DNA of 64,000 nucleotides from Tumidithrix helvetica PCC 7403 (GTDB lineage Bacteria > Cyanobacteriota > Cyanobacteriia > Pseudanabaenales > Pseudanabaenaceae): positions 64,001 to 128,000 of the forward strand of contig NZ_CBDDRA010000001.1 in the NCBI RefSeq assembly GCF_965232925.1, in the 5' to 3' direction. This document shows positions 28,259 through 35,151 of the stretch, piece by piece; positions within the stretch are counted from its first letter, which is position 1; each line of letters starts with the position of its first letter. Below the pieces are notes generated by a model. The model searched no databases, was not told the DNA's origin, and was given only the letters and a program-made list of their open reading frames with translations. The position numbers and the translations under genes were made by a program.

Positions 28259-29182
28259 TCAATAGGCTGTGACGATCTCTAAAAGCTCGGCGGTGATCGC
28301 AGTTTGACGCTCTTGTTGATAGGCAATCGTAAATTCTGCAATGCGTTCCTCAATATTCTTCTCAGCAATTTGCATGGAGGCGAGGCGGCTGGCATTTTCG
28401 CTGGCGAGGGACTCGACAAAGGCGCGATAGAGAGAGATAAAGAAATATTGTCGCAATAGCGAAGCGAATAGCCGATCGCTGGACATGGTAAACGTGGGCA
28501 GCGATCGCGATTGCCATGTCTGTTGTGCGATCGTTTGCAACCATTGCCGATCGAGGGGCAAGAGTTGTAGTTTGCTGGGTTCGCTAAAGGTACTGGCATG
28601 GAGGCGGTTGTAAAACAGCAGGATGCGATCGATCCGATCGCGATCGCGCCAAGTTTCGATTTGAATCAACATTTCCTGTACCATCGGCGTAATCCCTACG
28701 AGGGAACTGGGCATCTCGAAGGTTTGGGCGATCGCAAAACCCGCAGTTTCTAAGGGAGGAATAATCCTTGTGCCTACGGTAAATATGGACAGGCGATCGG
28801 CTGCGATCTCTGTATGTTGAATTTCCGCGATCGCATAACGGGCAATCTGTTCGTTAAATTGTCCGCACATTCCCTGTTCCGAACCAAAGACAATCGCACC
28901 GCAGCGTTTGCTAGAAACTTGAGTCAGGGCGAAAGGCGTACTTTTAAGAGGTTCGCCGTTATTGCCATGCATGCCATTCGCTTGGATAAATCCCTGGGGA
29001 TGCATGGTTTTGAGAACGACATACAATCCCTTTTCGATGGTTTGGGTATATTCGCTCAGGGATGCCACCGCTTGCTCGTATTGATGGATATTGACTGCTG
29101 CCAGCACCTTCATCATTTTGACGACCGATCGCAGGTCGGTAGCCGTATGAATTTGGCGTTGCAGCGATTGAATGGAGGTCAT
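28259..29182 (-). CDS. atpG: N-ATPase (F-type) subunit gamma
   Basis: 307 aa; N-terminal [29 protein letters not shown] and a C-terminal coiled-coil helix. Last gene of the operon; its start overlaps atpA by 4 nt. Confidence 0.85.
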
Positions 29183-30723
29183 GGAGTTCCTCCTGTTTCT
29201 GAATTATGATTTGAATTACTGAGGCGATCGCGGACAACCCGCAACAGAGATGCGCGATCGCTTGCACTCAGAGCTTCACCCCGTTCGATCCGATCGCAGA
29301 GATCGGGTAATTGGGCTGCGACTGCTTGGGCGATCGCAGTTTCACACGCGCTAATTTGACCGATCGGAATGGCATCGAGCAACCCTTCGGTAACGGCAAG
29401 CAGAATAGCGATTTGGGTGGCGACGGGCATAGGCTTGTACTGCGGTTGTTTGAGTACTTCGCGCACGCGCCGCCCCCGTTCTAAGGCAAGGCGGGTCGAT
29501 TCTTCTAGGCGCGTACCAAAGCGCGAGAAAGCTTCGAGTTCTTCAAATTGCGAATAGGAGAGCCGTAATGCCCCTGCAACCGAACGATAGGCGGGTAGCT
29601 GGGTTTTACCACCGACACGGGAAACGGATTTGCCCACATCGATCGCGGGCAATACGCCTTTTTGAAATAGCCCAGGCGATAGGTAAATCTGTCCGTCCGT
29701 AATCGAAATCAGGTTGGTGGGAATATAGGCAGCCATGTTTTGGGCTTCGGTTTCCAAGATTGGCAGTGCAGTGAGCGAACCACCACCGAGATTGGGATGG
29801 AGATGGGTGGAGCGTTCTAGCAGGCGGGAGTGAATGTAGAAAATATCCCCAGGAAAGGCTTCGCGACCGGGGGGACGGCGCAACAGCAGCGAGAGTTCGC
29901 GATAGGCACGGGCATGGGTGGTGAGGTCGTCGTAAATAATCAGAACATCGCGCCCCTGTTCCATAAAGTATTCTGCCATGGTCGTTGCGGCATAGGGCGC
30001 GACGAACTGCAATCCGGGCGGTTCTTCACCCGCAGCCATGACAACGGTGGTATAGTCCATCGCGCCGTATTCTTCCAAATCCGCAATTAGTTTAGCAACG
30101 GCGGTGCTGCGCTGTCCGATCGCGCAATACATGCAGAGAACATTTTTGTCTTTTTGATTGACGATCGTATCGATCGCAAGGGCACTTTTTCCTGTTTGGC
30201 GATCGCCCAAAATCAATTCCCGCTGTCCGCGCCCGATCGGAATGAGGGCATCGATCGCCTTGATTCCCGTTTGCAGAGGCACATTCACAGGAGCGCGATC
30301 CATAATTGCAGGGGCATTGCGTTCGGCAGGACGACGCTGGGAAGTACGGATCGCGCCTTTGCCATCGAGGGGACGACCGAGGGGATCGATCACCCGTCCG
30401 AGAATCGTATCGCCCACGGGAACTTCTAAAACCTTGCCCGTGCGCCGTACCTCGAAGCCTGCCCTGAGGCGATCGCTGGCATCGAGCAGAATAATGCCGA
30501 CTTCATCGGGGTCGAGGTTAAACACCATGCCCAGAGTGCCACCTGCAAAGCGAACGATTTCTTCTGATTCCACATGGGGCAATCCCGTCACTTTGGCAAT
30601 GCCCTGTCCGATCGACTGCACGATGCCGATTTCCTGCGATCGCAGGTCGGGGGGATGGGCGTTGAGTACGCGATCGTAAAGGGAGAGTGTCTCGTTGAAA
30701 ATGGTTTGCAAGAGATTATCCAT
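29179..30723 (-). CDS. atpA: N-ATPase subunit alpha
   Basis: 514 aa; Walker A GDRQTGKS; alpha signature regions. Confidence 0.9.
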
Positions 30724-31627
30724 GCGCTGGCTCTACTCCTTCTGCATTAATTCCCTCGCTAATTTCTTCGCCTATTTCTTCACTGATTTCTTCGCCTATT
30801 TCTTCAACCAGAACAGAAGCTAAATTCTCTGCGATCGCATCGAGATAGGCTTCAATACTCCAAGTCAGTTTGTAGCCCCTGCCGCGCAGTTCGATACCAC
30901 AAATTAAATCGGGTTGGGTTTCGCAGTCCAAATCTAGATCGCCTAAATTCGCTGCATTCAAGTAATTCTGTAAGACCTGCGCGATCGCAGTGCGAATTGA
31001 TTCGGGCAATTCAAAGGCACTCACTAGGGTAAGGGCAATACTGCTCTGTTGCTCGGTTTGGGTTAAGGCAGTCACTAAGCCAATGCGATCGCGATCGGCA
31101 AGATTTTGCAAGCGTTGTAGGAATACCTTGGCGACCTGTGCCTCTAGGGTGACTTCTGCCAGATCCTTAAGCACCAACTGTACGGTTGCCTGTAACTGCT
31201 GCATCGTGCGATGGCGCACCTCCTGCAAAAACGCTTCTTTCTGTCGGCGCAGGCTTGCCTGCCACTGCGATCGCTCTACTGCCGCCGCATCGCGCACTTC
31301 CTGTAACAGCCTTTGGCGGGTTTGCTCGACCTCTGCCTGTGCTTGGGTGAGTAATTCCGCTTGTCTTGCCGCTAAGTCTGCTTGCATCTGTTGGTAATGG
31401 GCGACCTCCTGCTGTGCCTCCTGCTGCTTCTGCTCGGCGGAGTTTAAGCGATCGCGAATTGTTTGTTCGCGGCGTTCCATCGCTTTGACGATCGGCTTGT
31501 AAAGTAAGCGTTGCAGCACAAATACCAAAACAAAAAAGTTAACAATTTGCGCCGTAAAGGTAACCCAGTTAATTTCCACGCTTGTTACCCCCCTACTTTC
31601 GTAACGGCAGAAATCACGTAATTCCAA
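30716..31627 (-). CDS. atpF: N-ATPase subunit b, unusually long (303 aa), with a C-terminal extension and an EEIGEEIS tandem repeat
   Basis: Single N-terminal TM ([18 protein letters not shown]), a long coiled coil, then a roughly 120-aa C-terminal region. A GTG at 31579 preceded by AGGGGGG is an alternative start that would remove the 43-nt overlap with atpE. Confidence 0.75.
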
Positions 31628-33362: not shown

Positions 33363-33748
33363 AAAAATTCACCTAACTCGATAAAACGTCGAATCGTGCT
33401 GATTTCGAGTTTTGCCAATACCGATCGCGCTGTTTTTTCGCGATCGCTGAAAGCCCGAAATTGTTGGGCGATCGTTTGTCGCAACATTCCTAGATCCTCC
33501 CCCTTAGCCGCGTGTTGGGTCGAAATTGTAACGGTATCTTCTTGTTTAATTAAAATTCCTTCATCAACTGCCCAAAACTGTTCTTTTCCTTCCTCGGGAA
33601 TAAACGAAAGCAAACTCGGTACCAGTATCGCTACAAAGTCCACATGGCGCGGCAGCAGACAAAACGAACCATTCTCGGCTTCGGCAACGACTTTGCTGAC
33701 TTCCGTTTCCAGCAAAATCTTGGTAGGTAAGATAATTTTGAGCAGCAT
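33359..33748 (-). CDS. atpC: N-ATPase subunit epsilon
   Basis: 129 aa; N-terminal beta-sandwich (LKIILPTKILLETEVSKV) and a C-terminal helical hairpin. Confidence 0.8.
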   Translation of the reverse strand: MLLKIILPTKILLETEVSKVVAEAENGSFCLLPRHVDFVAILVPSLLSFIPEEGKEQFWAVDEGILIKQEDTVTISTQHAAKGEDLGMLRQTIAQQFRAFSDREKTARSVLAKLEISTIRRFIELGEFL

Positions 33749-33759
33749 GACACACCACT

Positions 33760-35151
33760 CTAATGCTTCTGAACGACTTCTTCAACTGTACCAATCATGT
33801 AGAGCGATCGCTCCGAAACTTCAGAAAACTCATCATTGAGAATGCGATCGCATCCGTTTAGGGCATCCTCTAGTTCGACCACCTTTCCTGCCAAGCCCGT
33901 AAACTGCGTGGTCGAAAAGAACGGTTGGGTCAGAAATCTTTCCAAACGCCGCGCCCGATAGACCAATTGGCGATCGGCTTGCGACAGTTCTTCTAGCCCC
34001 AGCATGGCGATGATGTCCTTTAACTCCTCATAGGTGGCGAGGGTCTGGCGAATGGCTTGGGCAATGCGATAGTGGCGATCGCCAACAATATGGGGCATCA
34101 ACATTTTGGAATTGGACTGCAACAAATCCACGGCAGGATAAAAGCCTTCGCTAGCACGTTTGCGCGACAGAACGATGGAAGCCGACAAATGCGAAAATGC
34201 GTGAACTGCCGAAGGATCGGTAAAGTCATCCGCAGGCACGTATATCGCCTGAATCGAGGTGATCGCCCCTGCATTCGTATTGCAAATGCGTTCCTCTAAC
34301 TGTGCCAGTTCCGTGGCAAGGGTCGGTTGATAGCCAACCCGCGAGGGCAATTGCCCCATTAAGCCCGATACCTCTGCACCCGCTTGGATAAAGCGGAAAA
34401 TATTGTCAATCAGTAACAACACATCTTGGTGCTGGCGATCGCGAAAATATTCAGCCATCGTCAAGGCGGCATGTCCGACCCGAAACCTCGCCCCTGGCGG
34501 CTCGTTCATTTGCCCGAACATCAACACCGTATTCTTTAAAACGCCCGTCGATTTCATTTCGTCATAGAGGTCTAGCGCCTCGCGACAGCGTTCGCCAATC
34601 CCGCAAAACAAACTCACGCCCTGGTGCTGCTTCACCATATTGTGAATCATTTCGGTAATCAGTACGGTTTTGCCCACACCCGCACCGCCCAGCAGTCCTG
34701 CCTTGCCGCCCCTTTCCAATGGCGCAAGCACATCGATCGCCTTGATGCCTGTTTTCAGAATTTCCGATTTGGTAACGCGTTCTGACATCGCGATCGGCGT
34801 GGCGTGGATCGATCGCCATTCTCCGCCTGCGATCGGTTCGCCCCCATCGATCGGTTCGCCAAACAAATTGAACATGCGTCCCAACAAGCGATCGCCGACA
34901 GGAACTTGCAGGGGATGCCCCGTATCGGTCACGGTTTTACCCCTTGCCAGCCCTGCTGTCGGTGCTAGGGCAACGCCACGCACCACCTGCGAACTCAAAT
35001 GCGAAACGACTTCGATCGCGATCTTGCCGCCTTTTCCTGTTTGGAGTTGGGTACGCAGCTCTGGCAACTGTTGCGGAAAGCGCACGTCAACCACACTTCC
35101 ACGGACAGAAAGTACAGAACCAATATTTGCGATCGGGGAACGATCTGCCAA
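33760..35151 (-). CDS. atpD: N-ATPase subunit beta
   Basis: 463 aa; Walker [10 protein letters not shown]; DELSEED-like region [14 protein letters not shown]. Confidence 0.9.

Follow-up and report, generated by a model that had tools for sequence, protein, structure and literature searches.

Dibrova et al. 2010 described the N-ATPases, whose operon has the form atpDCQRBEFAG, with atpR as the tell-tale gene and without atpH, and which are always present as a second copy beside a canonical F- or A-type ATP synthase. Among cyanobacteria, the closest described systems are the marine N-ATPases (Acaryochloris marina pREB4, Synechococcus PCC 7002 pAQ7, and Cyanothece/Crocosphaera). We analyzed a stretch of 64,000 nucleotides ("the window"; all coordinates are positions within it) from Tumidithrix helvetica PCC 7403 (assembly GCF_965232925.1, contig NZ_CBDDRA010000001.1, positions 64,001 to 128,000), which contains an operon with this gene order (atpD-C-Q-R-B-E-F-A-G, 28259-35151, minus strand). 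Like the marine operons, it encodes AtpR and AtpQ, lacks a delta gene, and encodes a long b subunit with a delta-like C-terminus and a c subunit with two glutamates and an AQQPD loop. It differs from them in the ion site of c (ESVxxY instead of ESTxxY), in belonging to a separate clade (100/100 bootstrap), and in its b subunit, which is 34-39% identical to theirs. Also, the marine operons are often plasmid-borne, while the operon in the window lies among housekeeping genes on a 429-kb contig. Overall, the locus is very probably an N-type (N1No) operon for a rotary ATPase, atpDCQRBEFAG, that is intact and integrated in the chromosome. It is one more automatically annotated member of the family described in 2010, ordinary for that family and already known.

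Four other systems bear on the coupling ion. The N-type Na+-ATPase of Aphanothece halophytica is also cyanobacterial and is found beside an H+ F-ATP synthase. As described by the papers that cite it, experiments showed Na+ coupling of that enzyme and tied it to the salt tolerance of its host, which is halotolerant and alkaliphilic, while Tumidithrix is a freshwater genus and its Na+ motif is incomplete. The N-ATPase of Burkholderia pseudomallei, which has a c17 ring, shares with the window operon a two-carboxylate site, the loss of the Thr67 equivalent, and an arginine at position 164 of the a subunit, but its site reads E/E-T-M-x-x-Y with an RQPD loop, vs. E/E-S-V-x-x-Y with a QQPD loop in the window. 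The Na+-binding c11 ring of Fusobacterium nucleatum belongs to a canonical F-type synthase with a delta subunit. The equivalents of its Glu32, Glu65, Ser66, and Tyr70 are all present in the window's c subunit, but its Thr67, which holds a liganding water, is replaced by Val. The N-type enzymes of Nitrospiraceae (ISME J 2025, PMC12342949) share the loss of the Thr (it is Leu there), are from non-saline habitats, and are predicted to have shifted away from Na+. Unlike the window operon, they lack both the helix-1 Glu and atpR.

Gene content and family assignment

According to the open reading frame (ORF) calls and the family models, nine ORFs on the minus strand encode beta, epsilon, AtpQ, AtpR, a, c, b, alpha, and gamma, in that order. 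This is the order given by an earlier, sequence-only reading of the window, which had proposed a complete operon for an N-ATPase as defined by Dibrova et al. 2010. Beta (atpD, 33760-35151) has 463 amino acids (aa) and a TTG start after GAGG; epsilon (atpC, 33359-33748) has 129 aa; and AtpQ ("gene 1", AtpZ/AtpI-like; 32952-33362) has 136 aa. AtpR (32660-32959), the hallmark membrane subunit, has 99 aa. The Fo a subunit (atpB, 31994-32659) has 221 aa, c (atpE, 31585-31902) has 105 aa, b (atpF, 30716-31579) has 287 aa, alpha (atpA, 29179-30723) has 514 aa, and gamma (atpG, 28259-29182) has 307 aa. The intergenic distances are +11 nucleotides (nt) for D/C (12 had been claimed), -4 for C/Q, -8 for Q/R, 0 for R/B, +91 for B/E, +5 for E/F, -8 for F/A, and -4 for A/G. 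The four overlaps of 4-8 nt that had been reported are thus the C/Q, Q/R, F/A, and A/G junctions. The order and the junctions match those of the published N-ATPase operon.

We compared the nine products to hidden Markov models (HMMs) from NCBIfam and Pfam. Eight of the nine passed the cut-offs of the N-type NCBIfam models (six "alternate F1F0 ATPase" models plus TIGR02230 and TIGR03165), and for alpha, beta, and gamma, the N-type models outscored the canonical ones by 160-195 bits. Beta scored 812.7 bits with TIGR03305 (alt_F1F0_F1_bet; cut-off 752) vs. 618.5 with the canonical atpD model, and alpha scored 827.3 bits with TIGR03324 (alt_F1F0_F1_al; cut-off 750.5) vs. 656.5. Gamma scored 304.6 bits with TIGR03323 (alt_F1F0_F1_gam; cut-off 282.35) vs. 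141.6 with the canonical gamma model, which is under that model's cut-off (194.45). The other matches were epsilon to TIGR03166 (alt_F1F0_F1_eps; 138.8 bits, cut-off 100.1) and PF02823, the a subunit to TIGR03306 (altF1_A; 343.6 bits, cut-off 302.1), c to TIGR03322 (alt_F1F0_F0_C; 148.4 bits, cut-off 130.85), AtpQ to TIGR02230 (109.9 bits, cut-off 46.7) and PF09527 (E = 7e-13), and AtpR to TIGR03165 (62.6 bits, cut-off 55.5) and PF12966 (E = 1.5e-16). So the profiles for AtpR, AtpQ, and N-type alpha and beta, with which the proposal could be checked, all matched above cut-off, and the claim that genes for AtpQ and AtpR precede the gene for the a subunit is borne out by the Pfam matches. A genuine AtpI (PF03899) was not found in the Pfam search of the operon.

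The motifs for catalysis and coupling are intact: the Walker A motif of beta (GGAGVGKT, residues 155-162), GDRQTGKS in alpha, the essential stator arginine of the a subunit (Arg164, in the motif AVRLFGN), and Glu73 of c. As had been noted, there is no delta gene: searches with NCBIfam and Pfam gave no match to OSCP/delta among the ORFs of the operon or the adjacent genes. The 64-kb window does not contain canonical atp paralogs either, as tblastn with all nine subunits gave just the cross-match between alpha and beta. To our knowledge, the thylakoid atp1/atp2 operons are universal among oxygenic cyanobacteria.

Most of the features that define an N-ATPase are present, namely the gene order, atpR, atpQ, a long b instead of a delta, N-type grouping of the proteins, and a c subunit with two glutamates. 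The c subunit falls short of the complete Na+ ligand motif (ESTxxY), with Val for Thr; most members have this motif, but Dibrova et al. do not demand it of every one. The absence of delta, the single long b in place of a b/b' pair, the two-glutamate c, and the higher scores of the N-type models all separate the operon from the canonical cyanobacterial F-type enzyme. Two observations weigh against this picture of the enzyme. The b subunit scored slightly below the cut-off of its N-type model (209.3 vs. 224.7 bits for TIGR03321, alt_F1F0_F0_B), probably because its tail is divergent. And in Synechococcus PCC 7002, the transcripts of the N-ATPase did not rise at high salinity, so even a general role as a salt pump is not secure. 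We found nothing that contradicts the assignment to the family, and the agreement goes far beyond chance.

The operon's proteins were already in the public databases. Proteins from T. helvetica PCC 7403 are 100% identical to the window's c (match P0002) and b (match P0121, 100% coverage), and the other seven proteins, including epsilon, are also deposited as exact sequences, in the range CAN1208648-CAN1208656 (beta is CAN1208656.1). The deposited gene boundaries are the same as those we derived; for example, beta starts at TTG in both, and c and b have 105 and 287 aa. The public names are informative as well: alpha is "alternate F1F0 ATPase, F1 subunit alpha," AtpQ is "AtpZ/AtpI family protein," and the UniRef name for AtpR is "N-ATPase subunit AtpR." In the sister species T. 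elongata, the proteins of the operon are over 90% identical.

To place the operon among its relatives, we considered 80 related loci from species-representative genomes. T. helvetica itself is not in this set, and the closest match is 63% identical. The order DCQRBEFAG was found directly in 38 of the 80 loci, which makes it the commonest order, and another 15 loci fit this order except for AtpR, which is short and fell below the tblastn threshold. The circularly permuted order RBEFAGDCQ was found in 7 of the 80.

Both of the arginines of AtpR that belong to the original description of the N-ATPase (Dibrova et al. 2010) are present and conserved. Arg49, in the middle of the second transmembrane helix (TM2), is retained in 47/47 homologs, and Arg83, at the end of TM3, in 37/37. 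AtpR had no meaningful match in the Protein Data Bank (PDB), and we did not find a structure of an N-ATPase holoenzyme in the copy of PDB that we searched. AtpQ has an acidic, low-complexity C-terminal tail (PEPDSEPESNSE), which is encoded by a 6-nt repeat (32986-33013) and parallels the acidic repeat tail of b. Gamma is longer than its family model (307 aa vs. 285 positions), which points to an inserted segment of about 20 aa, probably in the region of residues 60-92; the gamma subunit of T. elongata has 303 aa.

The b subunit and the peripheral stalk

The N-type b subunit was claimed to have 303 aa, or twice the normal length. The longest ORF does encode 303 aa and extends to 31627, but we place the start at the GTG codon at 31579, which gives 287 aa. 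This start lies 5 bases past the stop codon of atpE, after a G-rich run that resembles a Shine-Dalgarno sequence, and it agrees with position 2 of the family models. As for "twice," that is correct only in comparison to canonical F-type b. The N-type b models have 246-258 positions and the homologs have 250-287 aa, so the excess of the window's b over its family is an acidic tail of about 25-30 aa. TIGR03321 and PRK14474 (241.4 bits, cut-off 339) both cover residues 18-273 of the 303-aa ORF. Some N-type b homologs, from Lyngbya sp. CCY1209, Limnospira, and metagenomes (P0214, P0221, P0227, P0230, P0232, P0234, and P0240), are much longer, at 432-447 aa, or about 170 aa over the norm.

To compare b to solved structures, we built a profile from 61 N-type b sequences. 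Positions 1-160 of the profile match canonical b, and positions 167-248 match residues ~96-176 (of 178) of delta in solved ATP synthases (E = 5e-8 for 7p2y_d from Acinetobacter baumannii, 9e-8 for 9o19_W from Pseudomonas aeruginosa, and 3e-5 for 5t4o_L from E. coli). The relationship to delta was visible only with the family profile; when we searched PDB with the single sequence, it matched just the N-terminal stalk of canonical b. The AlphaFold2 (AF2) model of b had a mean predicted local distance difference test score (pLDDT) of 85. It has a long helix (residues 5-140), two short helices, and a beta-alpha-beta-beta-beta-alpha domain (180-279), with pLDDT of ~80-95 for the C-terminal domain and 54-69 for the tail. 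Together, the profile and the model delimit an alpha/beta domain, similar to the C-terminal domain of delta, at about residues 165-258 (30806-31087, minus strand). This domain is conserved across the homologs and ends around residue 258.

Foldseek searches with the b model found mycobacterial b-delta fusions, subunit E of V-ATPases, and OSCP, with marginal E values (3e-4 to 1e-2). The mycobacterial fusion and the V/A-type subunit E (E of about 3e-4 to 1e-3) share with N-type b the arrangement of a long stalk helix and a globular C-terminal head in one polypeptide. However, the mycobacterial fusion holds a full delta, including the N-terminal bundle that binds alpha, while N-type b matches the C-terminal domain of delta only. 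The comparison that the sequence-only reading had in mind, of the b extension with the N-terminal domain of delta, therefore has the wrong end of delta: the homology falls on the C-terminal domain and not on the alpha-binding bundle. Its broader suggestion, that the extension of b takes over the role of delta, fits the delta-like homology, but this is a published trait of the family. That atpF is unusually long and aligns with the C-terminal region of delta was described by Sumi in 1997 and by Dibrova et al. in 2010, and a further report followed in 2014. As predicted from these alignments and the AF2 model, the peripheral stalk is built from b with a fused domain like the C-terminal domain of delta, which would account for no separate delta being encoded.

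What is lineage-specific in b is only the acidic tail of about 30 aa with its EEIG/EEIS repeat. The tail contains two copies of a 24-nt repeat (30758-30805, minus strand; 22 of 24 nt are identical), each of which encodes EEIGEEIS. The repeat had been reported at 30757-30804, which is one base off. Tandem Repeats Finder (TRF) describes it as 4.8 copies of a 12-nt unit (30748-30805). The repeat is missing from the closest homologs, whose tails are shorter and variable. We considered whether the EEIGEEIS repeat might be functionally important and rejected this, since the tails of homologs vary in both length and sequence and the tail is modeled at low confidence.

The ion site of the c subunit and the coupling ion

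In the c-rings of Ilyobacter tartaricus and F. nucleatum, the helix-1 ligand (Q32 or E32) is in the motif GxGxGQG, 14 residues ahead of the loop Q of RQPE. Na+ is bound by residue 32, the carbonyl of V63, E65, S66, and a water that is held by T67, while Y70 stabilizes E65. When the loops are superposed, Glu40 of the window's c (in ALGEGK; 31783-31785) aligns with Q32 of I. tartaricus. Helix 2 reads FIESVAIY, with Glu73, Ser74, and Val75 (31678-31686) and Tyr78, just as had been read before. The motif AQQPDE had been placed in helix 1, as the source of the Gln ligand, but it is in the cytoplasmic loop (residues 52-57) and is equivalent to RQPE of I. tartaricus. The site should therefore be read with the Glu of ALGEGK as the helix-1 ligand and with QQP as a motif of the loop. 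The claim that c is compatible with a Na+-coordinating set rests in part on the misassigned Gln, and by the criterion of Dibrova et al. 2010, the change from Thr to Val argues against a complete site.

Across the 80 related loci, the AQQPD loop was found in all 80 of the N-type c subunits (and AQQP in 119 of 120 database matches), while a helix-1 Glu was present in 71. The helix-2 motif was EST in 52 loci, ESI in 12, ESV in 11, ESL in 4, and ESM in 1. Judging by the alignment, the Val in place of Thr is the sole deviation of the window's c from the full Na+ set, and the two-carboxylate motif is otherwise present. This removes the sequence argument for Na+, but it does not exclude membership in the family: Dibrova et al. 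2010 consider the two-carboxylate motif to be typical of N-ATPases and list several that lack the Thr. They also report that losing any one of the Na+ ligands correlates with loss of Na+ specificity, and they speculate that when the Thr is missing, the helix-1 Glu could complete the coordination shell. In F. nucleatum, however, the helix-1 Glu is constitutively protonated, provides one ligand, and is energetically equal to Gln (Schulz et al. 2013), so a helix-1 Glu is not obviously a substitute for the water held by Thr.

We built a neighbor-joining tree from concatenated alpha and beta sequences (940 columns, 67 taxa), and the window operon nested within the N-type sequences from cyanobacteria. 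The tree has no F-type outgroup, so the contrast between the N-type and canonical HMMs is the real test of N-type vs. F-type. The window operon is in a clade with 100/100 bootstrap support whose other members are from Microcoleaceae, Nostoc, Oscillatoriales, Geitlerinema, Elainellales, Microcystis, and Nostocaceae. All members of this clade have ESV or ESI in c (loci L001, L003-L005, L007-L012, and L014), and their names read as non-marine; here and below, the sorting into marine and non-marine is a reading of organism names, with no habitat data behind the labels. EST is kept in Acaryochloris, Leptolyngbya cf. ectocarpi, Crocosphaera, Cyanothece, and a metagenome-assembled genome from Oscillatoriales (L022, L029, L034, L039, L074, and L077), which we read as marine. 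The Thr is also missing from database matches that are named as Stigonema, Pseudanabaena galeata, Microcoleus, Microseira, Phormidium ambiguum, Nostoc muscorum, Calothrix, Allocoleopsis, and Gloeobacterales. A comparable split by habitat was reported in 2025 for the N-type ATPases of Nitrospirales (PMC12342949).

The earlier label of a "salt-related" ATPase is unsupported for this organism. Tumidithrix is a genus of Pseudanabaenales that was described from freshwater, and strain PCC 7403 is, we presume, an isolate from a Swiss Sphagnum bog.

How might the enzyme work? From gene content, it has a complete alpha3beta3-gamma-epsilon head and rotor, a path for ions through a and c (the stator Arg and the rotor Glu), a stator of b with its delta-C-like domain, and the accessory membrane proteins AtpR and AtpQ. 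Going by the literature on the family, it would work beside the canonical thylakoid F-ATP synthase, mainly in the direction of hydrolysis, and would pump a cation outward across the cytoplasmic membrane; the reasoning for a pump and not a synthase comes from Dibrova et al. 2010. AtpR and AtpQ might assist in the assembly of the two-glutamate c-ring, with the arginines of AtpR pairing with the glutamates of the ring. Helix 1 of c has the pattern SxAxAxGxG, in which Ala replaces Gly of the all-Gly motif. By an argument from the literature on the Burkholderia c-ring, this might weakly favor a large ring.

The sequence does not decide which ion is pumped, and we consider Na+ and H+ about equally likely. 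H+ (or a mixed or low-affinity Na+ specificity) is as likely as Na+ because the Thr is lost, the genus is from freshwater, and the Burkholderia ring is specific for H+. If the operon encodes a strict Na+ exporter for salt tolerance, the helix-1 Glu would supply the ligand that was lost with the Thr at position 75. This might well be correct, although we would not bet on it. The window's c retains Glu40, Glu73, Ser74, Tyr78, and the backbone position, and thereby 4 of the 5 determinants of the Na+ site of F. nucleatum. Freshwater cyanobacteria also need to extrude Na+, to sustain Na+/HCO3- symport. The A. halophytica enzyme, as the citing papers present it, is Na+-coupled, and the argument of Dibrova et al. 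that the helix-1 Glu could complete the shell points the same way, but in F. nucleatum that Glu gives one ligand and does not replace the water held by Thr. Furthermore, just one N-type ring has been tested biochemically, from B. pseudomallei (E30/E61-T62-M63-Y66), and this Thr-less ring proved to be H+-specific despite the prediction of Na+ (Schulz et al. 2017). The freshwater host genus, the non-marine names throughout the Thr-less clade (while marine cyanobacteria keep EST), and the lack of a salt response of the N-ATPase transcripts in PCC 7002 also tell against a strict Na+ exporter. Proton pumping as in B. pseudomallei, with H+ extrusion for pH homeostasis or to energize the membrane in low-Na+ and possibly acidic freshwater, seems to us to have the same chance of being correct. 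With Val instead of Thr, the residue that would hold the water, the fifth ligand of Na+, is gone, and the B. pseudomallei ring has Met63 at this position. The Nitrospiraceae enzymes with Leu for Thr, from non-saline habitats, are predicted to translocate H+ (PMC12342949), and the Thr-less cyanobacteria form a clade with 100/100 support and non-marine names. The presumed bog origin of strain PCC 7403 would also agree with proton pumping. However, Ser74 is kept here, where B. pseudomallei has Thr; the Nitrospiraceae enzymes lack the helix-1 Glu and atpR, which are both present here; and the habitats are only a reading of organism names, while the ESV and ESI rings are known from their sequences.

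Two other explanations do not turn on the ion. The operon could encode a second ATP synthase, perhaps with a large c-ring, that is tuned to a low ion-motive force. In principle, F-type enzymes can run in both directions, the c17 ring of Burkholderia gives a high ratio of ions to ATP, and the SxAxAxGxG pattern might favor larger rings. But N-ATPases are always found beside a canonical enzyme, and deleting the operon from Methanosarcina acetivorans left ATP synthesis and growth unchanged (Dibrova et al. 2010), so we consider a synthase to be unlikely. Alternatively, the operon could be a decaying, non-functional relic of lateral transfer. Its GC content (51.7%) and its GC content at third codon positions (GC3), which are above those of the rest of the window, hint at a foreign origin, and its flanking genes are common to no related locus. 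On the other hand, there are nine intact ORFs with translational coupling, and the residues for catalysis and coupling are conserved. The proteins of T. elongata are over 90% identical and therefore appear to be under purifying selection, which counts against a relic. We think that a relic is very improbable.

Surroundings of the operon and implications for cyanobacterial N-ATPases

Directly upstream of atpD, also on the minus strand, are genes for a LuxR-type response regulator (35475-36137) and a sensor kinase with a CHASE2 domain (36252-38168). The response-regulator gene and atpD are separated by 323 nt, in which we read only one plausible candidate for a promoter element from the sequence: TGTATAAT (35233-35240, minus strand), which is extended -10-like and lies about 85 nt upstream of the TTG codon where atpD starts. 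A consensus scan for promoters and terminators gave no candidate that was better than TGTATAAT, and the number of sites was not above that in shuffled sequence. Neither the kinase and regulator pair (upstream) nor coaD and coaE (downstream) has counterparts beside the operon in the 80 related loci. Since the CHASE2/LuxR pairing does not recur, it is probably a local feature and not a regulatory system dedicated to the operon.

The GC content is 51.7% in the operon and 44.9% in the rest of the window, and the GC3 of the operon's genes (0.44-0.61) is also higher than in the rest of the window. Fourteen plasmids carry homologs of N-type b, including plasmids from Acaryochloris and Picosynechococcus. 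The plasmid-borne homologs, the raised GC and GC3, and the neighbors that do not recur all fit the published idea that the operon moves laterally as a unit.

The rest of the window contains ordinary chromosomal housekeeping genes (those for MnmA, MetRS, FtsH, CoaD, and CoaE), and scans of the window for Rfam families and tRNAs gave no matches. A block with unusually low GC3 (0.26-0.34) at 38238-44588 could be a cell-wall-lytic or foreign cluster. Its products are a protein of 821 aa that combines a phage-lysozyme domain with a C39-like peptidase domain, an alpha/beta hydrolase, and a protein with glucosaminidase, peptidoglycan-binding (PG-binding), and amidase_3 domains. At 54337-59616 on the plus strand is an RND efflux pair, with an HlyD-type membrane-fusion protein and a 1116-aa transporter of the AcrB family. 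Three ORFs on the plus strand (238, 241, and 537 aa; within 25588-27051 and 580-2193) have no match in Pfam, and the one of 238 aa looks like a multi-pass membrane protein.

In the separate clade formed by the cyanobacterial N-ATPases nearest to the window operon, the Na+ motif has lost its Thr, and the names of the named members read as non-marine. We propose, tentatively, that the Thr-less (ESV/ESI) clade, with its freshwater or terrestrial names (Tumidithrix, Pseudanabaena, Nostoc, Stigonema, Microcystis, Microcoleus, Microseira, and Gloeobacterales), may have switched its coupling ion or its role relative to the marine EST enzymes; the odds are, in our view, somewhat against it. After such a switch, the enzyme could be an H+ pump, or else a low-affinity Na+ pump that energizes the cytoplasmic membrane or aids pH or bicarbonate homeostasis. 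If the Thr-less clade does pump H+ or has a role unrelated to salt, then the common annotation as Na+-exporting enzymes for salt tolerance would mislabel the N-ATPases of many cyanobacteria from freshwater and soil. More broadly, the equation of N-ATPases with salt pumps would fail for most of the cyanobacteria that are not marine.

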